DNA from: a virus
DNA: 64,000 bases
Virus record (IMG/VR): IMGVR_UViG_3300023276_000007
Location: 42,766 to 106,765 of that record
Direction: 5' to 3' (one strand)
The position numbers were made by a program, and so were the translations under genes. Positions 28,263 to 56,439 of this stretch are shown here, one piece after another. Below the pieces are notes generated by a model that worked only from the letters and a program-made list of their open reading frames with translations, was not told where the DNA came from and searched no databases. Within the stretch, counting starts at the first letter, position 1; the number at the start of each line of letters is the position of its first letter.

Positions 28263-30425
28263 ATGGCACGACAACCTTTTGAGTATGGCCCCGATTGTGA
28301 TGGCCCTGATGTAGATATTAACATAATACCTACATCTTTCCCATTGTGTGATGAAGTCGTCTTTGAAGATCCTGACTTACTACCCACCTGCACCGACTTT
28401 GAGACTGTAGATTTTATAGTTCCCCCAGTCTGCCCATGTTTCCCTGAACGTATGGGTCTTACTGATAACTCGAATGCAAGTATTGCTTGTGGCGGGCCTC
28501 TACCTTCAATAACCTTTGATGCAGCTATCGTTAACGTAGCACCGGACGACTGCTGTGCTCCAGAGTTTAAGCTTGATATACAGTTAGATATACAAGTACC
28601 TTGTGTAGGTGCTGTCGGAGGCTGTGCCGCTATAGTTGGTCAAGTTGACATCAAAATTGATGAAGGTCCGCTTGGATGGTTCTTTGATTGGGAAAAATGT
28701 ATCGATGACCAAGGTAACATTATAAACGACCCCTGCTGTATTCGGCTAGTGGGTGAGATGTTTATACCTTGTATAGACGGTATAACATTTAAAGTTGAAC
28801 ATAATATCCAAGAGACCGGTGCAGTAGATATCCCTACCATCGAGGAGTTTACTATAGAAGCGTCTGATGACGTTCCATGTGAATACGATGTAGTATTCGA
28901 CATGCTAGTTCCTTTACCAGAGGACCCTACAATACCTATAAGCCCTACAGACCCAAATATACCACCCGGCCAGAACTGCTGTAATGGTGTAGGTTATTGT
29001 CCCGACGAAGGTACGTTTAGCGACCTAGGAAAAATGAAAACAGAGACTATTTCGGTCGTCACCAATATTACCTGTGATCTGGAAGGTAATTTAACTGTGG
29101 AGAGGACAGAACTTGAGTATGTTTGCGGGCTCCTTAAAGATTTCAGGATAGCTGGGAACGACGCGATTCCCTGCGCTGGGGCTCAGTCGTACAATGAGGA
29201 TTGCTGTCCAAGCACTACGACGACAGATCCGGACTACCCACCACCAACTACAGAGCCAGGTGAGGGCCCCTATGGCCCGTATATCCCGCCAGAAACCTGT
29301 CAGTGTCGGTGTGACAAATATTACGTGTGTGACAAAGAGACAGGGAAGACAATCCCAGACCTCTATGTTGAGGTTTACGACCTGTCCGGCGATGGTAGCT
29401 GTGCTTACCGTATTGTAGATGGTGACAGTGTAGACGAGAATAACAACGCGGTAATTATGCACGAAGGCCTAGGATGTCCAGACCCTGACGAAAATATATC
29501 TAACGGTTCTACTACGTGGGTTCTAGCGTGTGAACCCTGTAGTGATTGGCCGGATAACAGTACCACGACAACTACTACTACCACGACAACTACTACTACA
29601 CCGCCTATCATCATCGATGAGAAGTACTATTGCGTACAGATCGGTACCGGTGCTCCGAAGCAATGCGTTATCGGTGCAGCACTAGTTCCAGGATCACCAA
29701 TCTCAGCAGGACCTTTCGATAGTGCGTCTGAATGTGCAGCAAACTGTAATACAAACAGCTACGAGTATGAAGAGTGCCCTGCCTCGACAACAACCACAAC
29801 CACGACGACGACAACCACAACCACGACAACCACGACAACCGCGACAACCGCACCTCCTATGGCGGCGGCTTGTGGTACTGACAATGGTCACCCAACTATG
29901 CTAGTCACTATGACTTGGACAGGTGGCCCAGCTACTCGTGATTACATGGGATGTAATGACTGGGAGTCAGGCCAGCAGCGCGTCTTAAATGCCGATACCT
30001 ATGACCGGTACCAGAACACCATGGGTGGTTGCCTAGGTGAAGAAGGTGAATATTGGAGAAAGGGTGCAGACAGTGACGCATTTAACATGTCAGGTTTCGT
30101 AGATTTCTTCGGAGGATTTTTCTGGCAACTTAAGAATGAATATAACGGCGTTGGAGAATTGAACCATGGTACAGCAGCTATTGATGGTTACGTTTATGAT
30201 AGCCTCTCTGCGTTCTCACCAGGGCCAGGCGCGTTTTACCCTTTCGGTAACTCATTCCTAGACGGCCCTTTTGGTGGAAATACCGCCTTCCCTCCGCCGT
30301 CCACAGGCATGAGCGGGTGTTTAACCGGGGCATACCTCGGAGATCTTAAATCTGCACAGCTCAGCGGTAGCGTGACGTTCGCTAACGGTGTTACGGTGAC
30401 GTGGGAACAAGGAACAGGATGGTAA
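28263..30425 (+). CDS. Cys/Pro-rich fibre protein with two poly-Thr tracts and a C-terminal tip domain
   Basis: Dozens of Cys; Thr13 (29562-29600) and Thr18 (29787-29840); tip domain at 29859-30422. Confidence 0.7.
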   Translation: MARQPFEYGPDCDGPDVDINIIPTSFPLCDEVVFEDPDLLPTCTDFETVDFIVPPVCPCFPERMGLTDNSNASIACGGPLPSITFDAAIVNVAPDDCCAPEFKLDIQLDIQVPCVGAVGGCAAIVGQVDIKIDEGPLGWFFDWEKCIDDQGNIINDPCCIRLVGEMFIPCIDGITFKVEHNIQETGAVDIPTIEEFTIEASDDVPCEYDVVFDMLVPLPEDPTIPISPTDPNIPPGQNCCNGVGYCPDEGTFSDLGKMKTETISVVTNITCDLEGNLTVERTELEYVCGLLKDFRIAGNDAIPCAGAQSYNEDCCPSTTTTDPDYPPPTTEPGEGPYGPYIPPETCQCRCDKYYVCDKETGKTIPDLYVEVYDLSGDGSCAYRIVDGDSVDENNNAVIMHEGLGCPDPDENISNGSTTWVLACEPCSDWPDNSTTTTTTTTTTTTTPPIIIDEKYYCVQIGTGAPKQCVIGAALVPGSPISAGPFDSASECAANCNTNSYEYEECPASTTTTTTTTTTTTTTTTTTATTAPPMAAACGTDNGHPTMLVTMTWTGGPATRDYMGCNDWESGQQRVLNADTYDRYQNTMGGCLGEEGEYWRKGADSDAFNMSGFVDFFGGFFWQLKNEYNGVGELNHGTAAIDGYVYDSLSAFSPGPGAFYPFGNSFLDGPFGGNTAFPPPSTGMSGCLTGAYLGDLKSAQLSGSVTFANGVTVTWEQGTGW
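29562..29840 (+). repeat. Poly-Thr codon tracts (ACN)n
   Basis: ACCACGACAACTACTACT x2 at 29562-29597 and a mixed ACA/ACC/ACG run at 29787-29840. Confidence 0.9.
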
Positions 30426-30429
30426 ACTT

Positions 30430-31446
30430 ATGAGTAGCTTATTTTTTAAAGACGACCACGGTCAATTTATCAAACACGGCAACAAATGCTACACGAAGGT
30501 AGGTGCCTCTCAGGTTATGCCCGACGTTACAACAGCCCCGGATGGTGGGTCTTCTTTTGTTGATTGCGATGATTGCAACTCTGGTACTACGACCACTACT
30601 ACGACCACTACTACGACAGCCTTATCCGGGTTATCATTTGGGCAAACCAACACTCCTGCAGAAGGCGACCCAGAAAGTACAGTAGTTGGCGACTTAACAC
30701 CTACCGGCGGTACAGGCCCGTTCACGTATGCAATGAAAGCAGGGGCAGGTGATGGTGACAACGGTAGTTATAAGATTGTAGGATCACAGTTACAGTTAAG
30801 CGCGGCACCTAGTATCTCGGAACCGACCGACAGTATACGAGTAGAAGTTACCGATAGCCTAATGGCCACCTTTGACGACACCTTCTCAGTTGATGTATAC
30901 CCAACAACAGGATCTATGACCGTTGAACTAGCAGAAGGTTCACCGCTATACGACGACGCCTCTCCTGGTGAGGACGTAGGTGAAGTATCTGCAGGAACTA
31001 ACTTAGGCGACATAAACGCTGCCAATGGTAATCCATCCACACGACTAGTTTACGTATCAGGACCGGAAGTCTCCTTCTTAGGTAAGGACTGGAGTCCTAA
31101 CGATTACGGCGAGCTCTATACAGACGCAGTTCCGTATTCAGTGCCAGACCAGCACGAGTGGGGTAGTGATACACCTGCCAACCCTGGTTTGTATATGCAC
31201 GACTATCACGAAATGCCTTATGTAGGTGATTATGTGTCTCGGGTATCTTTCCGTATAGATGCAAGTAACCAATTAGACATTACTAACCAGACAACAGGTG
31301 GTACTATTGATAATAGCGTCGGCGTGACCTCTGGTAACGATCCAAACTTATTAGTACCAGATGGAACCATCGACACAGCCGCTTTTCAGGAAGTGACTTT
31401 TGCTAACGGACAAACCTGGAAGTGGCAACAGGAATCTGGATGGTAA
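30430..31446 (+). CDS. Poly-Thr + cadherin-like + half-cadherin + tip-domain protein
   Basis: Thr11 (30586-30618), cadherin-like VGDL…FTY…GAGDGDN…SIRVEVTD, orphan N-terminal cadherin strands at 30901-30993, tip ends VTFANGQTWKW. Confidence 0.7.
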   Translation: MSSLFFKDDHGQFIKHGNKCYTKVGASQVMPDVTTAPDGGSSFVDCDDCNSGTTTTTTTTTTTALSGLSFGQTNTPAEGDPESTVVGDLTPTGGTGPFTYAMKAGAGDGDNGSYKIVGSQLQLSAAPSISEPTDSIRVEVTDSLMATFDDTFSVDVYPTTGSMTVELAEGSPLYDDASPGEDVGEVSAGTNLGDINAANGNPSTRLVYVSGPEVSFLGKDWSPNDYGELYTDAVPYSVPDQHEWGSDTPANPGLYMHDYHEMPYVGDYVSRVSFRIDASNQLDITNQTTGGTIDNSVGVTSGNDPNLLVPDGTIDTAAFQEVTFANGQTWKWQQESGW

Positions 31447-31488: not shown

Positions 31489-32076
31489 ATGGCCATTACA
31501 TATACAATAGAAGCAGACCCTACCGCAGGCGGAAACGATGCGAATAACGCAGACTTTGACATAGAGAATCCAGACGTACTGGAGCTGTCCTCTAATGCAC
31601 CTTTAGCAGGCGGTAGTTATAAAGTTACAGTAAAAGCTGTTGATGGCGTATCTGGTGAGTTTGGCTATGGCTTCTTTACGGTAGTAATCAACCCTAGAAT
31701 CACAGCCCTAACACTGAATCAGACTAACGTACCTATCGTTGGCGATTCTGCAGGTACTCTTGTTGGTGACCTTCAAGTTACTGGCGGTACTGCTCCGTTC
31801 ACGTTTGCTTTAGTAGCAGGTGCAGGAGATGGAGATAACGGTAACTATCAAGTAAACGTTGCTGATATTGAAGTAAAGGCTGCGGCTGTCTTGACAGACC
31901 CAACTGACGCAATAAGAGTAGAAGTTACTGATGCGGCGGGTGACACGTTTGAGCAAGCACTCACAGTCAACGTACAACCAGTAACAGGAACTCTGACAGT
32001 TATATTGACTCTAGGATCTCCACTATTCGACGACGACAGTCCTACAACAGACGTCGGTACAGTAAGCGCGTCTTAA
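31489..32076 (+). CDS. Circularly split cadherin-like protein (candidate polymer subunit)
   Basis: Begins with the C-terminal portion of a cadherin domain, contains one full domain, and ends with the N-terminal strands of a domain; AT-rich leader and GAGGA SD. Confidence 0.7.
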   Translation: MAITYTIEADPTAGGNDANNADFDIENPDVLELSSNAPLAGGSYKVTVKAVDGVSGEFGYGFFTVVINPRITALTLNQTNVPIVGDSAGTLVGDLQVTGGTAPFTFALVAGAGDGDNGNYQVNVADIEVKAAAVLTDPTDAIRVEVTDAAGDTFEQALTVNVQPVTGTLTVILTLGSPLFDDDSPTTDVGTVSAS

Positions 32077-32101: not shown

Positions 32102-33946
32102 ATGGCTATAACATATACAATAGCAGCAGATCCAACGGCGTCGGGAAACGACGCCAATAACTTGGACTTTGAAATAGAGAACCCAGACGTACTGGAGTTA
32201 TCTGCTAACGCCCCTTTGACTGCCGCCACCTATAAGGTAACGGTAAAAGCCGTTGATGGTGTATCTGGTGAATTTGGCTACGGCTTCTTTGACGTAGTAA
32301 TCAACGCGGCTGTCACAGCGCTATCCCTTAATCAAACAAACACCCCTCAGGCGGGTGACCCAGTAGACACTTTAGTAGGTGACCTCCAAGTTACAGGGGG
32401 AACTGCTCCTTACACGTTTGCTTTAGTAGCAGGTGCTGGTGATGGTGACAACACACATTACCAAGTTGATGGTTCTAATATAGAGTTAAGTGCCTCTGGC
32501 GGCACAACAGCCGGAACTGATGCAATAAGAGTAGAAGTTACCGACGATAAAGGCTATACGTTTGAACAATCTTTAACTGTTAATATAGCCGTTGCTCCGA
32601 CCACGACCACTACGGCCGCCGCTACTACGGCACCTCCAGGACCACTAGCCTGTGGAACCCCTAATAGCGACCCTACTATGATCGTTACTATGTCCTGGAC
32701 GGATGTTGATGTAACCAAGAGTTACCTAGGGTGTACCTGGACTAATGGGGAAACTAAAGAATTATATACCACCTTCTATCAGGCAGTGGTTGGATCGCTG
32801 GAAACGTGGCGTAGAGATGCAGGACCAGACCCACAACTGTTTCATTTACACGGTAATGAATATTATCCGGGGACAGCCCCCTCCCTCTACGAAACCATAT
32901 TGGGAGGAGCTAGTATCGGCGTAGTATATCATACTAATTATAGACTTCAGATCTTTAAGGATTCAACTTTTACAGGATCCTCTGGCAATGTAGGAGTAAG
33001 TGCGTCCTCCCCGACAGCGGGTGCTCTAGTTACGGGTGCCCCTATAGCCCCAAGTCATAAAAGTGGTTCGGTCACTTTCACGAATGGCATCACCGTAAGT
33101 TGGGGGGAAGGTAACTTATGGCCACCACCGATTACGGATATAACCCTTAACCAGACTAATACACCGACAGAGGGTGACCCAGTAGCTACTTTGATTGGTG
33201 ACTTAACACCGACAGGTGGTACTGCATCATTTACGTATGCACTGGTAGCTGGTACCGGAGACACTGATAACTCTCATTACCAAATAACCGGCGCTAACCT
33301 AGAGTTAAGTGCCTCTGGTGGCTCAACATCCTTAACAGACTCAGTACGTATAGAAGTGACTGATGCGACTGGACGTAAATTCGAGAAGGCCTTTACTGTG
33401 ACAGTCGACCCCGTACCTATGGCAAGCCCTTGTTTACCAGACCTCGGACATCCGTCTATGCTAGTAACACTGTCCTGGACAGGAGGACCAGCCACTAGGA
33501 CATTCTTAGGGTGTACTGATTGGGCACCAGGACAACAGCGCGTAGTGAACGCAACTGGCTATAACTTAACTTACACGCCGACCACCGCAGTATCTGGCGT
33601 TAATTCTGCTGGATGGAATGCTGCCGGCGGTGGCGACGGCGACCTTATTAGATTCGGAGGGACTACCCTTCTAAGCTCATTCTCTAGTAGACAAGCTGGT
33701 AGCGTACGGTTTAACGGTATAGAGGGTGTCATCGGTGCCCCTGCCGACCCAACCTTCTCAATCTTTCGAGTTGACTTTAAATCCTTTACTGGCTACAACG
33801 GGAGCTTCAACAACTTAGTTACGGCAGGGTTCAGTCCTACTAAAACTAATGTCGGCGTAGGGGTACCTCTAGACGCCAGTAGAAAGAGCGGCTCAGTTAC
33901 CGATGTAAACGGTATTACGTATAGCTGGCAACCTAACGGCTGGTAG
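32102..33946 (+). CDS. Cadherin-like protein with Thr-rich linker and two tip domains
   Basis: First ~160 aa are paralogous to 31489..32076; two full cadherin-like domains; tip domains at ~32642-33121 and 33419-33943. Confidence 0.7.
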   Translation: MAITYTIAADPTASGNDANNLDFEIENPDVLELSANAPLTAATYKVTVKAVDGVSGEFGYGFFDVVINAAVTALSLNQTNTPQAGDPVDTLVGDLQVTGGTAPYTFALVAGAGDGDNTHYQVDGSNIELSASGGTTAGTDAIRVEVTDDKGYTFEQSLTVNIAVAPTTTTTAAATTAPPGPLACGTPNSDPTMIVTMSWTDVDVTKSYLGCTWTNGETKELYTTFYQAVVGSLETWRRDAGPDPQLFHLHGNEYYPGTAPSLYETILGGASIGVVYHTNYRLQIFKDSTFTGSSGNVGVSASSPTAGALVTGAPIAPSHKSGSVTFTNGITVSWGEGNLWPPPITDITLNQTNTPTEGDPVATLIGDLTPTGGTASFTYALVAGTGDTDNSHYQITGANLELSASGGSTSLTDSVRIEVTDATGRKFEKAFTVTVDPVPMASPCLPDLGHPSMLVTLSWTGGPATRTFLGCTDWAPGQQRVVNATGYNLTYTPTTAVSGVNSAGWNAAGGGDGDLIRFGGTTLLSSFSSRQAGSVRFNGIEGVIGAPADPTFSIFRVDFKSFTGYNGSFNNLVTAGFSPTKTNVGVGVPLDASRKSGSVTDVNGITYSWQPNGW

Positions 33947-33948
33947 TT

Positions 33949-34446
33949 ATGGATAATCACGGAGTGACGATACATCTCTACGGGTACCCATGCTCCGGTA
34001 AAACTACGATAGGTGGTTCGTTAGCTAAAGCATTAGGTAGAACTATAATCCTAGATGGCGACTATGTAAGAAAACATATAAGCAAAGACTTAGGATTTTC
34101 TAAGAAGGACCGTATAGAGAACGCCCGCAGAATAGGTAGCTATACCTCCCTATTAAACGACCAAGGGTTTAATGCGGTAGTATGTACAGTAGCTCCTCAT
34201 AAGAAGTGTCGAAGACTAATACGCGACCACGTCAAGTACTACACCTCTGTGTTTATAGACACACCTTTAAAGGATTGTATAATGCGTGACACTAAAGGTA
34301 TGTACAAGAAGGCTGTGTCCGGAGAGATACAAAATTTTACAGGAGTACATTCTTTTATAGATAGAGGTACACCCGACATCGTAGTAACACCTGGGCCAGT
34401 ACATCTTCAAGTCCAGTACATAATTTCACAATTGGCTGGAAATTAA
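33949..34446 (+). CDS. cysC: Adenylyl-sulfate (APS) kinase
   Basis: P-loop GYPCSGKTT, LDGDYVR, LGFSKKDRIENARRI, RDTKGMYKKA..GEIQNFTG. Confidence 0.93.
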   Translation: MDNHGVTIHLYGYPCSGKTTIGGSLAKALGRTIILDGDYVRKHISKDLGFSKKDRIENARRIGSYTSLLNDQGFNAVVCTVAPHKKCRRLIRDHVKYYTSVFIDTPLKDCIMRDTKGMYKKAVSGEIQNFTGVHSFIDRGTPDIVVTPGPVHLQVQYIISQLAGN

Positions 34447-34500: not shown

Positions 34501-35625
34501 ATGTTGAATATCGTAAGCGGTTGTCCTCGCTCTGGGACTAGTCTATTAATGAACGTCATGCTCTCCATCTTTGGTGAAAAAAACATTATGGGTGGTGGCA
34601 AGCCCAACCTTGACTTTGACTACGACGCTGAGCTTGCTAAGCTAAGCAACAGAGAACAGGCTATGGTTTGGTCTCAAGAGAGAGCCTTAGCTGCAAAAGG
34701 CCAGACGAGAGAAAAGAGGTTGGAGATACAAGCGAAAACTATGGATCTTAACCCCAACGGGTTCTTCGAGTGTCAGTACAGCGTTCAAGGTATTTCCTAT
34801 AACTACCCAGACCGCGAGCAACTTAAAAAGTATGTTAGCGACGGCGGGGATAAACTATGCATGAAAATAGTCTCCAGTGGTCTGCGGGTTAGTGACCCAA
34901 GGTTTATTGGGAAGGTAGTCTACCTTATAAGACATCCTAGGTCTGTAGCTAAAAGCCAAGAAAGGCTACGTACGCAGCTTGATATGCTTTTTGAATCAAA
35001 CCCTGGTTATGAGGATATGAAGCAAAAGATGGTTATACATTCCCCGCGTATGTATATCAACTCTACAAGAGCAGCTTCCGAGTTTTTCCTAGAGAATCCA
35101 GACATACCTGTTCATCCATTACACTACGACGAGCTCATTGCTACTCCTGAGAAAGTTATTAAAGACTTAGCGGGATTCTTGGGTAAGAACAAAAAAACCG
35201 TATGGTCTAAGGCTAAAGGTATCGTAGATCCTAAGTTAAAGAGAAGTTACCCTGAAGATATCGAAAGTGACCTATGGGAAGACGCAGAAGAGGTTTACCG
35301 ACTTTTTGATAAGCAAGACTACCAAGGCGTTGTCGACTACCTCAAGCCTATGCACAGAAACACTAATCAAGCAAACTCTAATTGGGTATGTGCACGTAAC
35401 GGTATTCTGACTAACAAGGCACAGTGTACAAACTGCATCAATAATGAAACCGTAAGAACCAACTTTAAAAAAGCAGCTAACGAGAAGAAGATTGATTGGC
35501 GTAATGAGCCTTGCCTCTTTGAGTGCGGTATGAACCTCTCCTTAGAAGACGATAAGGTACTTACCTTAGAAGAAAGCACCAAGAATAACTTCTGGAGAGC
35601 AGGTGCTGAAAGGCTGGTTAAATGA
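34501..35625 (+). CDS. PAPS-dependent sulfotransferase with Cys-rich C-terminal extension
   Basis: 5'-PSB IVSGCPRSGTSLLM, NPNGFFE, 3'-PB LIRHPRSVAKSQ, HYDELIATPEKVIKDLAGFLG. Confidence 0.88.
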   Translation: MLNIVSGCPRSGTSLLMNVMLSIFGEKNIMGGGKPNLDFDYDAELAKLSNREQAMVWSQERALAAKGQTREKRLEIQAKTMDLNPNGFFECQYSVQGISYNYPDREQLKKYVSDGGDKLCMKIVSSGLRVSDPRFIGKVVYLIRHPRSVAKSQERLRTQLDMLFESNPGYEDMKQKMVIHSPRMYINSTRAASEFFLENPDIPVHPLHYDELIATPEKVIKDLAGFLGKNKKTVWSKAKGIVDPKLKRSYPEDIESDLWEDAEEVYRLFDKQDYQGVVDYLKPMHRNTNQANSNWVCARNGILTNKAQCTNCINNETVRTNFKKAANEKKIDWRNEPCLFECGMNLSLEDDKVLTLEESTKNNFWRAGAERLVK

Positions 35626-36560
35626 ACAAACTAACCTGTATTCTAACCTTCTTAAATGAAGGTATAGAAGTCTTTAGGACGGTTAAAAGCATACGGGACA
35701 GTGTAGGGGATACTGTAGATATCTTATTGGTAGACGACTCCAGTACAGATGGGGTGCCCTATAAAGTTGTTGCCAACAAATTTAACTGTGACTATGTGAA
35801 GTCGGATACTCGACAAGGAGTGGCTGGCGCGAGAGATCTTGGAGTGTCTTTAGCTAAGACGCCATACTGTATACTCTTCGATGCCCACATGAGGTTCGAC
35901 AAAAGAAGTAATTGGGCAGAACGAGTTGTAGAAGAAATAGAAAATAACGACAGGCGTATTTACTGCACAACTTGTGTATCCTTGTGGTATCCGTTTATAG
36001 AGCAGTCCCAAAGTGTTACCCACCAAAGAAGCACAGGAGCTTACCTAGCGACATCTTTCAAGGATAGCCACACTAGCCTTGCGGCTAAGTGGATACCGCT
36101 CAAACTAACAGGCGTAGAACCAGTTCCTTTAGTTCTTGGGGCGACCTATGCCTTCTCTGTAGAGTACTACCGTGAGTTGCGAGGTTTAGCCGGCTTGAAG
36201 TATTATGGCAGTGACGAACCTTGGATATCCCTAAAGTCTTGGGCGATAGGTGATGGCTGCGCAGTTATAACAGATGTTAACATAGGCCACCTATTCCGAT
36301 CCAAGCACCCGTATCCAGCGTATGGACTAGACGCCCTCTATAATAAACTTTTTATGGCGGCTGTAGTTTTTCCTAAGAAGACTAAGTGGTTAGAGGACCT
36401 AATGAGGTTGGGCGGCCCAAAGGTAAGTAAGATGTTTAAAGAAAATGAAACTCAGTTTAGGGAAACAAGGTCTTGGTTTGCAGAAGTGGAGAAGCCCGGC
36501 TGGCGGGAGACATTCTCTCAATTGAATGGAGAATTTACTGAACAGGTAATTACGTTATGA
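35622..36560 (+). CDS. GT-A glycosyltransferase (GT2/GT27-like) resembling polypeptide GalNAc-transferases
   Basis: TFLNEG, RTVKSI, LLVDDSS, GVAGAR, DxH motif FDAH, YGSDEPWISLKSW, IGHLFRSKHPY. Confidence 0.85.
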   Translation: MNKLTCILTFLNEGIEVFRTVKSIRDSVGDTVDILLVDDSSTDGVPYKVVANKFNCDYVKSDTRQGVAGARDLGVSLAKTPYCILFDAHMRFDKRSNWAERVVEEIENNDRRIYCTTCVSLWYPFIEQSQSVTHQRSTGAYLATSFKDSHTSLAAKWIPLKLTGVEPVPLVLGATYAFSVEYYRELRGLAGLKYYGSDEPWISLKSWAIGDGCAVITDVNIGHLFRSKHPYPAYGLDALYNKLFMAAVVFPKKTKWLEDLMRLGGPKVSKMFKENETQFRETRSWFAEVEKPGWRETFSQLNGEFTEQVITL

Positions 36561-37252
36561 ATGAAGTCTACTTAGTAAGCAAACATACTTCCTACCGAAA
36601 TATGGGGCTAATGGAGCAAGAAACGTTACAGAGTGGTTTTGTAGCTGCCTTAGACGGTTATCTTGATGGACCTTTCTTAGAGTCTGGTGTAGTGCCTATG
36701 ATGCAGCTATACACACCCGAAAATGGGATACCTACGGAAGTTGTAGGAACTAACGTGGTCAGCCTTAGCTACTCTGGAAAGGTGCGGAACGCTTTAGATA
36801 AAATATTTAATTACTTCCCAGCAGACCAGGCCGTTGTGGTTAGAGTATTAGGCGCCGACCTTCTTGAAGAACTGACAGCAGATCCAGAGTTCTATGAGAT
36901 TATAGAGGAGTGGGTTAGCAGGGATCGGGGCGTTAGTGTCGTCTACGACGGAGCAGTTGCTTCCCCAAACCACTTGATACCTATCTATACATTTAAAGAT
37001 AAGAAACCTATCCGAAATGATGGTGGTGCGTATGCCTGCGACCTCGACTATCGATGTAAAGACTATAGCCGTAAGGATGAAAGCCATGTTTCCAGAGAAG
37101 TATATTTGAAGAGGTGGAATACTTGTATAGGCTGCCCTGCTATGAAGCAGAGCGGAAAGACCATGCAGTGCTCGCTATGCACCTGCGCAATGAAAATCAA
37201 AGCTAAATGGAAAAGTGCCACCTGCAGTGACAAGGCAAACCGTAAGTGGTAA
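36557..37252 (+). CDS. Hypothetical protein with C-terminal Cys-rich (DUF6171-like) domain
   Basis: RWNTCIGC…CSLCTC.MKIK…ATC…KW; ATGA-coupled to the glycosyltransferase. Confidence 0.55.
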   Translation: MNEVYLVSKHTSYRNMGLMEQETLQSGFVAALDGYLDGPFLESGVVPMMQLYTPENGIPTEVVGTNVVSLSYSGKVRNALDKIFNYFPADQAVVVRVLGADLLEELTADPEFYEIIEEWVSRDRGVSVVYDGAVASPNHLIPIYTFKDKKPIRNDGGAYACDLDYRCKDYSRKDESHVSREVYLKRWNTCIGCPAMKQSGKTMQCSLCTCAMKIKAKWKSATCSDKANRKW

Positions 37253-37722: not shown

Positions 37723-37997
37723 TGGTAGTGGTTATAAGTATAGGTTTAGTAGGAAACGCCCTACGGAGTAGTAAATTTAAGAGTGCATTCCCTGAGTTCA
37801 ATGGGATCGTAACACAACCTAAGACAGGGTGTCCTGGTTGTGGTTCTCGCAGTAAACAATTAGTGGCCCCTACTCAGGTATCTGTTTTCTTGCGTATCAT
37901 GGAGTCCCTACCTACAAGTAAGCTTGCATCTTTTAAAAAGTATTTTAACGCTGGGTCTTTACAATACCGGCTAAACAATGAAGTGAGAACATTATGA
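37722..37997 (+). CDS. Small hypothetical protein with GCPGCG motif
   Basis: TAATG coupling at 37722 with GGAGG SD. Confidence 0.5.
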   Translation: MVVVISIGLVGNALRSSKFKSAFPEFNGIVTQPKTGCPGCGSRSKQLVAPTQVSVFLRIMESLPTSKLASFKKYFNAGSLQYRLNNEVRTL

Positions 37998-40222
37998 GCA
38001 AAGATAGATCTAACGCTTTCAGCCCTGATCAGGGCTACAGTCCTATAGGTGATGACGTTAAGTATGCGCACATGGTGCCAGTGCTTGACGAAAACGGGTT
38101 ACTAGACTCTAGCCTCTTTAACGTCGACACAGGTTCTCCTTCTGGCGGTGTATTAATTGACCAAGGGTTTTACTACATCGACGTAATCAACGGTAACGAC
38201 ACTACAGGCGACGGAACTATAAGCCTACCTTACCAGACCATCAATAAGGCAATCGCCGACGATGTTGCTAAGGCTGGGGCAAATACTACGCTGGTACTCA
38301 GCCTGCTAGGTTCTACTGGAACCAACTACGCAGCAGCAGCTACTGCAGAAGCTAGACATGAAAAGGTTGTTATACAGAGTACATTAGGCGTTCCTGCAAA
38401 TGTTGACAGTTTTACTTTTAATAATACACCTGTTGGTGGTAACGTGGAGCTTCTAGTTACGCAAGGCGTTAAAGTTGCCGCGGCTACAAGTAGCGACGGT
38501 GCTGTCGACTTCACAGTAGACTGTAGAGATGGTGGCTATGTCACTACAGCCAGCACTGCGCTAACAGGAACCTTCTATTCTTATGGGAACCTAAACCCAG
38601 CAATGTCGCCAGGTTTCACTTTTGTACCTTTTATAGACGCCACCTTCGTCAGCTACACTCCTGGCGACGCAGGCGACTGGTCAAGTGTACCATCACTAGC
38701 TTCTGCTGCTTTAGATATATTAGCTAACGACTTGGCAAATAAACTTAATGTTGCCGTAGGTGCGGTGGCAGCCGGAGAGCTTGCCGTATTTGATGACGCT
38801 ACCGGAGAGAACATATCTTCTGCAAGCATCTTAGCATCTGCACTCTACACAACCCTAGCAGATGCTGGTGGTGGTTTATCACTCATTAACGCAGATGCTG
38901 CCCCTTCTTTAACTTTTAATACTTTTGGCGACAATGCACACCCTGCGTTAACTATGTCTAATATCTCAGACGTACTTACTGTGAGCTTTCTTCCAGGTAA
39001 CTTAGACCACGACGAGCTTAACGGCATAGGCGATGATGACCATACTCAGTATGTACATAATACTGTAGACAGGACTATCTCGGCCAGTCACACGTTTAAC
39101 CCTACAGTAGCAGGTACTCCTTTTATTCTTGGAGCAAATGCCCTTGACCAATTGGTAACAGGACTTAACGCAGAGAAGCTAAGTGGTAACGTTGCGTCGG
39201 ACAATGTTTGGAATGCAGGATTCTTCGACGGTATAGTCGCAGACGCCGCAGGTATCACTGACACACAGTATATGGCGTATGACCTAGCACAGAATAAGTT
39301 TTTACCAGCGTCGCCGTTAATCCCTACAGTAGCTCAGTTCAACGCTGATAAGATTGTAGGTAAAACTGTTGATGACGCCAACATAGCCGACGGAAGAGTG
39401 TTGGCGTATAACTTATCAACTACGAACCTTGAATATGTAGACGTGTTGAATCCGGCAGTAGCTCAGTTCAACGCTAACCGCATACAGGATATCACTGTAG
39501 ACCTTACTGGTATGTCGGATCAGGATGTTCTTCTTTATAATCTTGGCACAAATACTTTTATCGCATCAAGCTCTCTTAATCCGTCGGTGGCTCAGTTCAA
39601 CGCAAGTCAGATACAGAGTAAGGTTGTCAACGATGCAGCAATCGCAGATACTAACGTATTGGCCTATGACCTAGGTGGTGACGAGATCATTTATAGAGCT
39701 ATCCCTCTAGAGACTACAGAATCTTTCAATGCCAACCAGATCATGAGTAAGACTGTTAATAATACAGCCATCGCTGACAAGTACGCTCTTCTGTATGACC
39801 TAGGTGGTGACGAGATAATTTATGCACCAGTTCCGTTTGCAGAGTCTGGTGTTAGAGCTATTGAGTACAGGTTCCTTGCAGATGACGTAGATCTTAAGTC
39901 TCTGTCAGACACTACCATATTTACAGTACCTGCAGGGCAGAGAGTTGTTATCGACGAAGTGCAGGTTCTTATAAAAGATGCTTCAGGAGTAACAATACCA
40001 CCTGAAGTATCTGCAGGTATTACAGGTGATACTACCAAGTACGTAGCAGCCGTAGTGTTAGGTGCCCCGTCAATAACCGCTGGTAACAGAGAGGACCTTA
40101 CACTAGCAAGTTTGACACAAGTGTCGGCAGGAGAAGATATTACTTTCTCAGTAACCACAGTAGGCACAGCGACAGGCTCTTATACAGCTACTATACTAAT
40201 CAGAGGAACAATATTAATTTAG
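37994..40222 (+). CDS. Fibre-like virion protein with ~41-aa repeats
   Basis: N-terminal YYIDVINGNDTTGDGTISLPYQTINKAI (DUF1565-type), HDELNGIGDDDHTQY, repeated (AQ/ES)FNAxxIxxKxVxxxxIADxxxLxYxL units. Confidence 0.6.
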   Translation: MSKDRSNAFSPDQGYSPIGDDVKYAHMVPVLDENGLLDSSLFNVDTGSPSGGVLIDQGFYYIDVINGNDTTGDGTISLPYQTINKAIADDVAKAGANTTLVLSLLGSTGTNYAAAATAEARHEKVVIQSTLGVPANVDSFTFNNTPVGGNVELLVTQGVKVAAATSSDGAVDFTVDCRDGGYVTTASTALTGTFYSYGNLNPAMSPGFTFVPFIDATFVSYTPGDAGDWSSVPSLASAALDILANDLANKLNVAVGAVAAGELAVFDDATGENISSASILASALYTTLADAGGGLSLINADAAPSLTFNTFGDNAHPALTMSNISDVLTVSFLPGNLDHDELNGIGDDDHTQYVHNTVDRTISASHTFNPTVAGTPFILGANALDQLVTGLNAEKLSGNVASDNVWNAGFFDGIVADAAGITDTQYMAYDLAQNKFLPASPLIPTVAQFNADKIVGKTVDDANIADGRVLAYNLSTTNLEYVDVLNPAVAQFNANRIQDITVDLTGMSDQDVLLYNLGTNTFIASSSLNPSVAQFNASQIQSKVVNDAAIADTNVLAYDLGGDEIIYRAIPLETTESFNANQIMSKTVNNTAIADKYALLYDLGGDEIIYAPVPFAESGVRAIEYRFLADDVDLKSLSDTTIFTVPAGQRVVIDEVQVLIKDASGVTIPPEVSAGITGDTTKYVAAVVLGAPSITAGNREDLTLASLTQVSAGEDITFSVTTVGTATGSYTATILIRGTILI

Positions 40223-54399: not shown

Positions 54400-56439
54400 A
54401 TGTCAACAGTAATAGATGCCGGACTCGACTTCGGAATAATTAAGAAGGCTGTCGATGCACAGTTTAAAAAGATGTCACAAGGTAATCCGGAATTATTTAC
54501 GGTCACCTATGATAAGCAAGCTGTATGGGAAACATATCTACAGGCGTTCCCTGAAGGATCTAACCCTATATTTAAAGAACGCACAGAACATGATTGTGTC
54601 TGCTGCAAAAGCTTCATTCGACGAGTAGGCGGTGTTGTTAAGATTAATGAAGACGGAAGTCTTGATAGTATCTGGGATGTTAACCTAGAAGGACCTTATG
54701 GTGTCGTAGCAAAAGCTATGTCTAACTATGTAAAGTCCCGACCTATTGAAAACGTCTTCCGTAACTGGGAGCGTACAGCTGGTCAGGACAAGAGTGTGGT
54801 ACTAGATGAGACAACAAGCCAGACTGTCACGTGGAGACACTTCTATTGTACGACAGAGGACTACTTCCTTAAGGCAGATAAGACTCCAACATACTTAGGC
54901 GATAAGAGGTCTAACTTCGACGTTCTTAAAAGAAGCCTTGCAGAGCTAACTCTAGAGTCTGCTGAAATTGTTCTTGAACTAATCGAGCAGAACTCTCTGT
55001 ATCGTGGTGAAGAGCATAAGCGCACTGTTGATACCTTCATAAGGTTAAAGAACGAGTATGACGCAGTTGTCGGTGACAAGGATCGGTATGTTTGGTTGAA
55101 GTCTGTTGCTATGGGTGGTGCCAGTAAGATTCGTAACCAAGTTATTGGATCTTTGTTAATTGACCTATCCGAAGGTGCAGACCTGACAAGTGCTGTTAAG
55201 AGTTTCGAGGCAAAGGTAGCTCCGTCAAACTATAAGCGCCCAACAGCCTTGATTACTAAAGGTATGATCGACAAAGCACAGAAGACTGTAGTAGAGCTTG
55301 GATATGAGTCCGCACTACAACGTCGCTATGCTGTAACAGATGATATTACGATCAATAACGTCATCTATGCAGATAGATCTGTGAAGCCTGCCATGAAAGG
55401 TGTTTTCGAGGAACTGGCCGATACTATACAGGATAAGCCAAAGAGCCTCGAAAAGGTGGAGGAGATTAGCATTGAAGATTTTATCAACAATGTAGTCCCT
55501 AAAGCTACTGGCATCGAAATGCTTGTAGAGAATCGTCACTCAGGCAACTTAATGAGCTTAGTTGCTCCAGAAGATGCTGAAGCTAAACATATGTTCAAAT
55601 GGGATAATAACTTCTCATGGGGATATAACGGCGAAGTGGCAGACTCTATGAAGGAACATGTTAAGGCTGCTGGTGGTAACGTCACTGGTGACCTGCGCTG
55701 TTCTTTGATGTGGTATTCTAGGAATGACTTGGATCTACATTTGATAGAGCCTTGTGGTAACTTAATAAGCTTCTCTTCTATGGTATCTCGATGTGGTAAA
55801 GGTCGTCTCGATGTGGACAACACAAGTGGTGGTACTTTACAAAAGCCTGCAGTAGAAAACATCACATGGCAGAAGAGTAAGGATATTAAAGAAGGGCGTT
55901 ATAAAGTCCTAGTCCATAATTACAGTGGATCTAATACCAACGAGGCCGGGTTCGACTTTGAACTTGAATTCAAAGGTACGATCTATCCGATGTCTTATAA
56001 ACAGGCAGTCGGTGGTAAGAAGAAAGTTACCTGTGTTGAGTTTGACTATACCCATGCTGACGGTGTAAAGATCGTTAAGTCCTTGGATGTAGAGAGCGCC
56101 AGTAAAGAGGTGTGGGGAATTACTACCGAGTCATTTAACAAGGTGACTATGGTAATGCACTCTCCTAACCACTGGGATGGTAATAAGACTGGTAACAAAC
56201 ACTGGTTCTTTATTATGGAAAACTGTAACTCGGGCTCAAGCGCTCGTGGTTTCTTCAACGAGTTCTTGAAGGAAGAGTTGCATGAACACCGTAAAGTGTT
56301 CGAAGTTCTCGGTAGTAAGCTCAAAGTAAAAGAATCCGACAACCAGTTAAGTGGTATTGGGTTCTCCTCTACAGTAAGTAACCATGCCTACTTCAGAGTG
56401 AGCGGCGCTATGAAGAGAACTATAAAAGTTCGCTTCTAG
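54400..56439 (+). CDS. Conserved phage protein with N-terminal HDCxCC motif and C-terminal YfaP/DUF2135-like domain
   Basis: ERTEHDCVCCKSFIR; DLRCSLMW…DLDLH…LDVD…VENITW. Confidence 0.7.
   Translation: MSTVIDAGLDFGIIKKAVDAQFKKMSQGNPELFTVTYDKQAVWETYLQAFPEGSNPIFKERTEHDCVCCKSFIRRVGGVVKINEDGSLDSIWDVNLEGPYGVVAKAMSNYVKSRPIENVFRNWERTAGQDKSVVLDETTSQTVTWRHFYCTTEDYFLKADKTPTYLGDKRSNFDVLKRSLAELTLESAEIVLELIEQNSLYRGEEHKRTVDTFIRLKNEYDAVVGDKDRYVWLKSVAMGGASKIRNQVIGSLLIDLSEGADLTSAVKSFEAKVAPSNYKRPTALITKGMIDKAQKTVVELGYESALQRRYAVTDDITINNVIYADRSVKPAMKGVFEELADTIQDKPKSLEKVEEISIEDFINNVVPKATGIEMLVENRHSGNLMSLVAPEDAEAKHMFKWDNNFSWGYNGEVADSMKEHVKAAGGNVTGDLRCSLMWYSRNDLDLHLIEPCGNLISFSSMVSRCGKGRLDVDNTSGGTLQKPAVENITWQKSKDIKEGRYKVLVHNYSGSNTNEAGFDFELEFKGTIYPMSYKQAVGGKKKVTCVEFDYTHADGVKIVKSLDVESASKEVWGITTESFNKVTMVMHSPNHWDGNKTGNKHWFFIMENCNSGSSARGFFNEFLKEELHEHRKVFEVLGSKLKVKESDNQLSGIGFSSTVSNHAYFRVSGAMKRTIKVRF

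Follow-up and report, generated by a model that had tools for sequence, protein, structure and literature searches.

Does a bacteriophage encode a relative of the enzymes that initiate mucin-type O-glycosylation and, if so, what would that enzyme modify? Mucin-type O-glycosylation initiated by GT27 enzymes is regarded as a eukaryotic (metazoan and apicomplexan) invention. The question was raised by one open reading frame in a stretch of 64,000 nucleotides (hereafter the window) from a 106.8-kb contig of a large uncultured phage, whose product was said in the original prediction to carry the full motif series of the GALNT catalytic domain. We refer to this protein as the GT:

35622..36560, + strand: GT-A glycosyltransferase, GT27-like (polypeptide GalNAc-transferase-like, ppGalNAc-T-like), 312 aa, ATG start, predicted to be soluble (sequence, profile and fold searches)

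Examination of the translation located all eight of the quoted motifs in the order proposed, namely TFLNE (aa 9-13), RTVKSI (19-24), LLVDDSS (35-41), GVAGAR (66-71), FDAH (86-89), GATYAF... (173-183), YGSDEPWISLKSW (195-207) and IGHLFRSKHPY (221-231). The only Pfam match of the GT was PF00535 at aa 6-119 (58.6 bits for a cut-off of 23.3), which is not discriminating because genuine GT27 enzymes match this family as well; PF02709 was not detected. The GT was also claimed to lack the ricin lectin domain and the transmembrane anchor, and this was borne out. The Pfam search did not find PF00652 (ricin-type lectin) and the C-terminal end of the model consists of catalytic-domain helices, while sequence and model have no N-terminal hydrophobic segment, strand 1 of the fold beginning at residue 4.

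When the GT was compared with all PDB sequences by phmmer, the best 15 matches were all ppGalNAc-Ts (E 1.7e-10 to 9e-6), with alignments spanning aa 4-240, which comprise the GT1 motif and the Gal/GalNAc-T motif. A profile built from 65 family members matched GT27 at E 2.6e-28, and by these sequence comparisons the resemblance to GALNT enzymes is far beyond chance. Structure led to the same family: the AlphaFold model of the GT (pLDDT 93.5) retrieved with Foldseek, among the matches listed, nothing but GT27 structures through rank 48, and VIA-align scored it at Z 27.8 with GalNAc-T1 (288 residues aligned, rmsd 2.8) and at Z 27.7 with TgGalNAc-T3, versus Z 18.7 for the best non-GT27 fold. GT27 is thus the closest solved family by sequence, family profile and fold. 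The clustering with polysaccharide- or DNA-modifying GT2s that would have spoken against the original prediction was not observed, GT27 folds being ahead by 9 Z units; in addition, the genes that accompany the family in genomes encode Thr-rich proteins or peptides and are not polysaccharide or DNA-modification genes.

The alignment with human GalNAc-T2 pairs T143, D176, R201, D224 and H226 of that enzyme with T9, D39, R64, D87 and H89 of the GT, and G308, H359, F361, R362 and Y367 with G173, H223, F225, R226 and Y231. The predicted Mn2+ ligands of the GT are accordingly D87, H89 and H223 (D224, H226 and H359 in GalNAc-T2), and D39, D87, H89, G173 and H223 are invariant across the 65 family members. 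F225 is conserved, and W157, which is nearly invariant in the alignments, possibly corresponds to GalNAc-T2 W282. The UDP-contacting residues are kept and the sugar-contacting motif is altered. The WGGEN(x)E segment aligns without a gap and reads YGSDEPW in the GT, with a family consensus of YGxDExY, so that W331 is replaced by Y, G333 by S, E334 by D and N335 by an invariant E199. The WGGE motif is therefore changed as had been noticed, and a GalNAc donor is not implied. The N335/E199 position is also the site of the catalytic base in inverting GT7 enzymes, and since E199 is invariant the linkage formed by the GT may not be alpha. Judged on its sequence, with no lectin domain, no membrane anchor and YGSDE in place of WGGEN, the GT is not a strict member of GT27.

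To consider what the enzyme could act on we turned to its gene neighborhood. Upstream of the GT lie the following four genes:

28263..30425, + strand: Cys-rich modular protein of 720 aa with Thr tracts; candidate glycosylation substrate, from its sequence
30430..31446, + strand: candidate substrate of 338 aa, composed of a Cys module of some 50 aa at the N-terminus, a run of eleven Thr (T11, nt 30586-30618), an Ig-like module and a distal domain
31489..32076, + strand: protein of 195 aa without a Thr tract, paralogous to the N-terminal part of the 614-aa protein (75% identity across 162 aa)
32102..33946, + strand: candidate substrate of 614 aa, internally duplicated, whose Thr tract reads T5-AAA-TT-APPGP (nt 32600-32614 onward)

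Runs of at least five Thr occur in only 3 of the 113 ORFs of the contig, and all three are within the five genes that precede the GT cassette. The 720-aa protein has tracts of four (T4, nt 29214-29225), thirteen (T13, nt 29562-29600) and eighteen Thr (T18, nt 29787-29840), the last followed by ATTAPP. These three Thr-tract proteins are paralogous, and the C-terminal module of the 720-aa protein is also present in the 614-aa protein. All four ACN codons are used to encode the tracts, which suggests that selection acts on the protein. The poly-Thr proteins matched none of the Pfam or PHROG families and showed no homology to proven virion proteins; their sole match was between the Ig-like module and a cyanophage hypothetical protein. 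The 195-aa paralog gave a weak FlgD Ig-like match. From their place between baseplate and tail-fibre-like genes, the poly-Thr proteins may have a structural, fibre-like role.

Related enzymes were then sought in other phages. Neither blastn nor tblastn gave a match to the cassette or the GT among INPHARED phages, and a single-sequence scan of IMG/VR with the GT gave no match; the viral relatives were recovered by an alignment-based IMG/VR scan. The closest relative among those retrieved, on locus L122, has a GT with 52% identity and the same gene order as the window, with poly-Thr proteins followed by the GT and then by a homolog of the gene downstream of our GT. The N-terminal module of the 338-aa protein is homologous to that of the L122 poly-Thr protein (35% over 49 aa, E 1e-5). 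Four further phage records, of 98, 204, 93 and 50 kb, had their (ACN)x7 matches confined to the region 1-3.7 kb upstream of the homologous GT gene, and a Thr-dense ORF was found at most 8 kb from the GT in 21 of 40 viral loci. This pairing does not hold throughout: of the phage records with a GT homolog, three that are complete or large contain no T6 tract, and two further ones have a single T6 tract 9-14 kb from the homolog. Considering this context, we regard the O-glycosylation, in the cytoplasm, of Thr-rich stalks in the phage's fibre-like proteins as the most likely role of the GT, and as a probable one. The acceptor is proposed from the Thr tracts that neighbor the GT or its homologs in the window, L122, the four further phage records and the peptide loci of bacteria.

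The same neighborhood could be read otherwise. Like phage GT2s of the GtrB type, the GT could act with the neighboring sulfotransferase and adenylyl-sulfate (APS) kinase on a host envelope glycan (LPS, capsule or S-layer glycan) in superinfection exclusion or receptor masking, the poly-Thr genes being near by coincidence in a tail-fibre region. Accessory ('moron') genes are indeed frequent near fibre genes, some GT relatives lack any Thr tract, PF00535 is a generic GT2 family, the JGI names of relatives point to cell wall biosynthesis, and there are weak NCBIfam matches, far under the cut-offs, to EPS and teichuronic-acid glycosyltransferases. We nevertheless consider an envelope target improbable: polysaccharide GT2 folds score at least 9 Z units under GT27, the GT has no transmembrane segment or lipid-carrier partner, no flippase, polymerase or Wzx/Wzy-like gene was found near it within the window, and the association with poly-Thr is found again in unrelated phages and, in bacteria, with peptides in place of fibres. 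Some phages are also known to glycosylate 5hmC or 5hmU with GT-A or GT-B enzymes, and a role of the GT on modified bases (hydroxymethyl pyrimidines) might be hidden by the state of the contig, which is 57% complete and could have its base-modification pathway in the missing part. Such a role would leave the Thr-tract association without explanation and is hardly credible, given that the GT gene is within the late structural block and that the 54 further contig ORFs scanned contained no hydroxymethylase or TET-like family.

The alignments place the GT in a large, hitherto uncharacterised family of phages and Bacteroidota. The Bacteroidota relatives share 35-43% identity with the GT over aa 1-255. 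A LanC-like domain, which matches NisC at E 3.6e-10, is fused to the GT in 29 of the 65 family members, and the longer members have no lectin domains. At about 33 of 80 Bacteroidota loci the GT is some 3 kb from GG-leader peptides with cores ending in Thr or Thr/Pro-rich sequence; those of Bacteroidales are Cys-rich, and the peptides match no NCBIfam family. Loci with such enzymes have appeared as 'LanC + GlyS' areas in a paper on RiPP mining in Bacteroidales (PMC10352776). The LanC-fused Bacteroidales relatives probably act on small secreted or RiPP-like peptides, and the Cys-rich, Thr-rich GG-leader precursors beside the bacterial homologs might suggest that the phage GT does so too, rather than modifying virion proteins. 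However, the phage members are stand-alone enzymes of about 310 aa without LanC and their Thr tracts are in proteins of 200-840 aa. Moreover, a scan of 40 IMG/VR loci other than the window and L122 did not find the GG-leader pattern in 32. Six of the others (L002-L007) have GG-leader ORFs with Thr/Pro-rich cores and a GT essentially identical to that of Prevotellamassilia timonensis, and are probably bacterial or prophage DNA; the remaining two match the pattern with no Thr/Pro-rich core. A peptide target is therefore very unlikely for the phage enzyme.

With the Thr-rich stalks as the proposed acceptors, we then considered the genes that adjoin the GT and one further gene of the same contig:

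33949..34446, + strand: APS kinase, PAPS-producing (PF01583, E 6.4e-38)
34501..35625, + strand: PAPS-dependent sulfotransferase (ST), 374 aa, whose Cys-rich C-terminal extension is conserved (PF13469, PF00685)
36557..37252, + strand: ORF231, orphan protein of 231 aa with a DUF6171-like Cys motif at the C-terminus
L126:1380-2063, same contig, outside the window: GT31 / Galactosyl_T ORF, core-1-synthase-like, with a DDD-type motif (PF01762)

The stop codon of the 614-aa protein is 2 nt ahead of the APS kinase start, the stop of the ST overlaps the start codon of the GT, and the stop of the GT overlaps the start of ORF231. As promoter and terminator scans gave no excess over shuffles, the operon limits were drawn from gene spacing alone. 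The APS kinase scored slightly below the TIGR00455 cut-off (129.5 bits for 138.7, E 1.1e-37). The ST has a 5'-phosphosulfate-binding (PSB) loop and a 3'-phosphate-binding motif on a P-loop-like fold. Its residues G7-S14 of the PSB loop, R144 and S152 are conserved in 44 homologs, and all 23 rows of the fold search at Z of at least 8 (Z 13.0-8.0) obtained with its AF2 model (pLDDT 86) are PAPS sulfotransferases or the homologous retinol dehydratase. ORF231 matched no PDB, Pfam or NCBIfam family, and for it the Atlas offered the DUF6171-like C-terminus alone, with scores below 0.9; its single homolog, at 7976-8665 of L122, has 24% identity and the same place downstream of the GT.

The coupling of the APS kinase and ST to the GT, a trait specific to this clade, together with a GT31-like ORF elsewhere on the contig, tentatively suggests a sulfated mucin-like glycan. 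The GT31-like ORF matched PF01762 with 41 bits (cut-off 23, E 2.4e-10), and its best PDB match was Drosophila C1GalT1 (7q4i, E 7e-6), with both the DDDTY and the SGGAGY segment inside the alignment. The five other GT-bearing phage records searched gave no GT31, and the pairing of GT27-like and GT31-like enzymes is hence no general rule. It is also possible, if somewhat doubtful, that the GT glycosylates the Thr tracts and that the APS kinase and ST form a separate function, either auxiliary sulfur metabolism or sulfation of tyrosines, a small molecule or a host target. The fold search does not separate acceptor classes, as the ST is nearly equidistant from TPST, Stf-type, olefin-synthase and heparan sulfotransferases (Z 13.0 to 10.4), leaving TPST, carbohydrate and small-molecule sulfotransferases nearly tied. 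L122 has the GT and ORF231 and no ST, and an ST match was present in one of the five other GT-bearing phage records, 55 kb from the GT. Against such a separation stand the overlap of the ST stop with the GT start and the relatives with about 60-63% GT identity, in which the contigs given for the ST and GT clusters are equal in length (65577, 14143, 8937 and 3203 bp), so that the two appear to be co-located, in one case on a contig of only 3.2 kb.

In the mechanism that we propose, the GT would be an Mn2+- and UDP-sugar-dependent cytoplasmic protein O-glycosyltransferase, and its family would be the sister group, in prokaryotes and viruses, of the polypeptide GalNAc-transferases of eukaryotes. 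Late in infection it would add HexNAc or hexose to the hydroxyls of the Thr runs, which would form the stalks of the three paralogous fibre/adhesin-like proteins encoded just upstream, and glycosylation would make stiff, mucin-like rods that resist proteases out of the flexible Thr linkers. The ST of this phage clade, using PAPS made by the APS kinase of the phage, probably adds sulfate to that glycan or to the proteins themselves. A bolder version, which we think unlikely, is that the phage builds a sulfomucin mimic on its fibres, with the GT starting on the poly-Thr stalks, the GT31-like enzyme extending and the ST and APS kinase sulfating, and that the family is the prokaryotic sister or the source of the eukaryotic mucin-type enzymes.

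In all, a phage-encoded GT with GT27 catalytic architecture adjoins pure Thr runs in fibre-like proteins of the same phage. Its relatives, in phages and in peptide-modification loci of gut Bacteroidota, number in the hundreds. If the proposed role is correct, the GT would provide a minimal, lectin-free, bacterially expressible GalNAc-T relative for mechanistic work and glyco-engineering, and phages could make mucin-like, possibly sulfated glycoprotein stalks, which matters for how stable and protease-resistant virions are, how they adhere to mucus or cell surfaces and how the immune system recognises them. It would also suggest that Bacteroidales have glycosylated Cys-rich/Thr-rich peptides of a class not yet described, and would bear on the evolutionary origin of GT27.

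Our literature searches found no publication on polypeptide-GalNAc-T-like phage or bacterial enzymes paired with poly-Thr proteins, and the known systems each share a part of this arrangement. A mycobacteriophage-encoded glycosyltransferase reportedly acts in the host cytoplasm on structural proteins of the phage itself, its substrates being, as reported, the C-termini of capsid and tail-tube proteins. We know of no GT27-like enzyme or sulfation module in that system, which moreover belongs to a different host phylum, whereas the candidate substrates here are internal poly-Thr stalks. SunS (glycocin S/O-glycosyltransferases, GT2; 7msp) resembles the GT as a GT-A enzyme that glycosylates ribosomal peptides, but its fold is far more distant (Z 12.6 versus 27.8 for GalNAc-T1), its metal motif is different, and its acceptor is a Cys or Ser in a helical hairpin peptide. 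The Bacteroidota GT(-LanC-like) enzymes belong to the same protein family and have the same invariant residues and adjacent Thr-rich sequences. In contrast to the phage GT, they are often 540-820 aa long with LanC-like and second GT domains, and their partners are leader peptides of 86-126 aa instead of large fibre-like proteins. The eukaryotic GT27 reference structures (mouse GalNAc-T1 8v9q, human GalNAc-T2 4d0t/2ffu, T10 2d7i, Drosophila PGANT9 6e4q and Toxoplasma GalNAc-T3 8uhv) share only 18-21% identity with the GT. Besides the YGSDE segment, the GT differs from them in having Leu at the position of H145 and a catalytic loop about 3 residues shorter between the HPY motif and the conserved Asn. 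Unlike these enzymes it has no ricin-type lectin domain, stem or membrane anchor, and because the last two are lacking it is expected to be cytoplasmic and not Golgi-lumenal. Common to both are the two GT-A halves, the DxH and distal His triad, the GHxFR..HPY loop and the residues equivalent to R201, G308 and F361, and the acceptors proposed for the GT, Thr and Thr/Pro-rich tracts, would be the classic mucin-type acceptor of the eukaryotic enzymes.

The glycosyltransferase under study (GT) belongs to a cassette in which its start is overlapped by the ST stop codon and its own stop by the start of ORF231:

33949-34446: APS kinase (E 6e-38)
34501-35625: PAPS-type sulfotransferase (ST)
35622-36560, + strand: GT, 312 aa
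36557-37252, + strand: ORF231, 231 aa

The polypeptide GalNAc-transferase (GALNT) motifs quoted in the original prediction were all found in the GT translation, in the order proposed. Pfam recognizes only a generic GT2 domain (aa 6-119, E 1e-15). A phmmer search of all PDB chains returned polypeptide GalNAc-transferases for all of its top 15 matches (E 1.7e-10 to 9e-6), with alignments spanning aa 4-240, which extend past the nucleotide-binding half to include the Gal/GalNAc-T motif. The match to GT27, the CAZy family of these enzymes, rose to E 2.6e-28 with a profile built from 65 family members, and non-GT27 glycosyltransferases covered no more than the initial ~90-125 positions of its GT domain. 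The AlphaFold2 model calculated from the 65-member alignment was confident (mean pLDDT 93.5, pTM 0.92), and when it was compared with the PDB using Foldseek, GT27 structures filled the listed rows through rank 48 without exception (best E 4e-18, highest TM 0.76). Exhaustive VIA-align comparison gave Z 27.8 for mouse GalNAc-T1 (rmsd 2.8 over 288 residues) and 27.7 for Toxoplasma GalNAc-T3; the next fold was chondroitin polymerase K4CP (Z 18.7), and the glycocin enzyme SunS reached only 12.6, against 27.8 for GalNAc-T1. The best BFVD match was a Caudovirales GT-A protein without a name. GT is homologous to GT27 catalytic domains, and its predicted activity is like theirs in mode of action.

Residue equivalences were derived from the phmmer alignments with PDB chains, with GalNAc-T2 residues numbered as in entry 4d0t. 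T143, D176, R201, D224, H226, G308, H359, F361, R362 and Y367 of GalNAc-T2 correspond to T9, D39, R64, D87, H89, G173, H223, F225, R226 and Y231 of GT, respectively, and D39, D87, H89, G173, E199 and H223 are invariant in 65 of 65 family members. GT departs from GT27 at H145, replaced by Leu, and in the loop following HPY, which is ~3 residues shorter. The WGGE motif is altered as had been predicted, with YGSDE where GT27 has WGGEN, and the lectin domain and membrane anchor noted earlier as missing are indeed both absent from the 312-aa protein. Lacking these three GT27 features, GT was rejected as a GT27 enzyme proper and therefore filed in a GT27-like family, an undescribed one that is both prokaryotic and viral. 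E199 pairs with N335 of GalNAc-T2, the position of the catalytic base in inverting GT7 galactosyltransferases, and the stereochemistry and donor of GT27 should therefore not be assumed for GT.

At E <=1e-3 an exhaustive HMMER search retrieved 1762 cluster representatives, and 285 reached E <=1e-30; many are 540-820 aa long. In 29 of the 65 top members the GT domain is followed on its C-terminal side by a LanC-like domain. Cellular members are overwhelmingly from Bacteroidota (Prevotella, Bacteroides, Parabacteroides, Dysgonomonas, Flavobacterium), and relatives are also encoded at 40 IMG/VR loci. A maximum-likelihood phylogeny grouped the query with its metagenomic relatives of 51-65% identity (support 100). 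Their clade is joined, with weak support (81), to a purely viral one comprising 16 stand-alone enzymes of ~310-410 aa; both nest in a well-supported group (97) that also holds mostly stand-alone ~310-aa Bacteroidota enzymes.

The source IMG/VR virus contig (106.8 kb, 57% complete according to CheckV), of which the window takes up bases 42766-106765, carries nearly every gene of the window on the + strand. PHROG matches include tail sheath, baseplate wedge and virion structural proteins as well as an SbcCD-like nuclease. Parts of a multisubunit RNA polymerase (Rpb1 and Rpb2 domains) are encoded outside the window, and the protein at 54400-56439 (phrog_1735, E 3e-263) shares 52% identity with proteins of Klebsiella phages whose genomes measure ~145 kb. 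On these grounds the source is a myovirus, large and uncultured. Acb1-like, Prok-JAB, papain-like peptidase and response-regulator receiver domains are also encoded (G000:C1:1-42765, the contig part outside the window). A 742-aa tail-fibre-like protein (37994-40222, + strand), with weak PHROG tail-protein matches, contains ~5 tandem repeats of ~37 aa each with the pattern ...AQFNA..I....V.D..IAD..VLAY.L....

Thr-rich polypeptide segments are the classic GT27 acceptor. Runs of at least 5 Thr occur in 3 of the 113 ORFs of the query contig, and all three lie directly 5' of the cassette:

28263-30425: candidate substrate, tracts of 13 and 18 Thr
30430-31446: candidate substrate, tract of 11 Thr
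32102-33946, + strand: candidate substrate, 614 aa, 5 Thr then AAATTAPPGP

These paralogs have in common a C-terminal domain as well as Ig-like modules and, at the N-terminus, Cys modules. All four ACN codons occur in the Thr tracts, which rules out DNA slippage artefacts and indicates selection at the protein level. A neighbouring 195-aa ORF (31489-32076, + strand) shares 75% identity with the N-terminal 162 aa of the 614-aa protein, the similarity stopping just short of the Thr tract, and by sequence looks like a recent partial duplication of its gene.

The same arrangement recurs elsewhere. In L122, a metagenome contig with a 52%-identical GT, two proteins with long pure-Thr tracts precede GT, and an ORF231 homolog comes after it. 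Whole-record scans for (ACN)x7 in four other phage records with a GT homolog (98, 204 and 93 kb, complete or nearly so, and 50 kb, about half complete) placed every match 1-3.7 kb upstream of that homolog and none elsewhere; a rough estimate of the chance of such adjacency in four independent lineages is ~2e-4 or less. Of 40 viral loci, 21 have a Thr-dense ORF within 8 kb. There are exceptions to the rule: three GT-bearing records contain no tract of 6 Thr, and two more have a single one, 9-14 kb away. In one Thr-tract-free phage (L018:12540-16267) the second and third ORFs downstream of GT contain poly-Ser runs, and Ser may be the acceptor for some members of the family. In near-identical phages (L010-L014, IMG/VR 3300045988 contigs) a 215-231-aa protein encoded directly upstream of a 766-aa GT varies in Thr/Ser-tract length, a VNTR-like stalk-length variation of the kind known from mucin genes. 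Were GT to modify a host-envelope glycan, which we consider unlikely, the repeated adjacency to Thr tracts would be left unexplained, and the same applies to glycosylation of DNA, a reading to which we give hardly any credence.

Small ORFs (65-126 aa) were found at ~33 of 80 Bacteroidota loci (L059, L094, L076, L113, L053, L092, L098, L103 and ~25 others), as a rule at a distance of ~2.9-3.5 kb downstream from the GT start. In their products a typical double-glycine leader is combined with Cys-rich NxxC/CxC repeats, and a segment rich in Thr or in Thr and Pro lies ahead of the hydrophobic tail; in Bacteroidales, small leader peptides adjoin GT27-like-LanC-like fusion enzymes. No curated family matched the double-glycine-leader peptides, which may represent a class of glycosylated peptides not yet described. 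A Bacteroidales RiPP-mining paper (PMC10352776) reports LanC plus 'GlyS' areas, and a term search of it turned up no such Thr-rich peptide cores. Phage fibre-like proteins and Bacteroidota peptides are two independent genomic settings, and thus link the GT family to Thr-rich segments. That the phage GT itself targets a peptide instead of a virion protein is very improbable; the repeated Thr-tract adjacency would again go unaccounted for.

We favour protein O-glycosylation as the probable function of GT. Fold, motifs, gene order and the recurring arrangement are direct observations; acceptor, donor, linkage, location in the virion and target of sulfation are inferred. The soluble enzyme would act inside the host cytoplasm, coordinating Mn2+ through D87, H89 and H223 and drawing on a UDP-sugar of the host as donor, and would glycosylate the Thr stalks of these fibre/adhesin-like paralogs, all three of them, during their synthesis. 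Dense O-glycosylation makes mucin domains stiff, extended and protected from proteases, and by analogy could stiffen, extend and shield these putative virion stalks. ST would add negative charge, but coupled sulfation of this glycan is a more tentative proposal. At Z >=8 the ST model (pLDDT 86) matched nothing but PAPS sulfotransferases and retinol dehydratase, a homologue of theirs, with scores (olefin-synthase ST 13.0, Stf9 12.1, TPST 11.5, heparan 3-OST 10.4) that do not separate acceptor classes. GT and ST clusters of the relatives come from contigs of the same sizes (65577, 14143, 8937 and 3203 bp), which implies co-location even on the 3.2-kb contig. L122 has no ST, and among five other GT-bearing phage records one has an ST, distant from GT; the predicted sulfation is therefore a clade-specific addition. 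The 286 metagenomic relatives of ST are nearly all nameless or 'hypothetical protein'. Its ~100-aa C-terminal extension (aa 275-374), in which C297, C309, C312 and C338 are invariant and C342 nearly so among 44 homologs, is probably a metal-binding domain, judging from these residues. ORF231, an orphan protein translationally coupled to GT and conserved at the equivalent place in L122 (24% identity), ends in a DUF6171-like Cys motif (CxxCP...CxxCxC...C). Outside the window, a GT31 Galactosyl_T protein (L126:1380-2063 = G000:C1:1380-2063, + strand, 228 aa) matches PF01762 at 41 bits (cut-off 23, E 2.4e-10), its best solved relative being Drosophila core-1 synthase C1GalT1 (7q4i, E 7e-6). No GT31 was found in the five other GT-bearing phage records; this protein may supply a second step in the glycan pathway.

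Freeman et al. 2023 (cited in PMC12801897) reportedly described virion glycosylation encoded by mycobacteriophages; phage-encoded virion glycosylation as such is already known. No description of a GT27-like enzyme with a poly-Thr acceptor and a sulfation module was found in the literature, and what is new here is the GT27-like catalyst, the proposed poly-Thr acceptor and the sulfation module. Together, the GT27-like and GT31-like enzymes, the PAPS supply and the sulfotransferase resemble, in resemblance only, the enzyme set for a sulfated mucin-type glycan.
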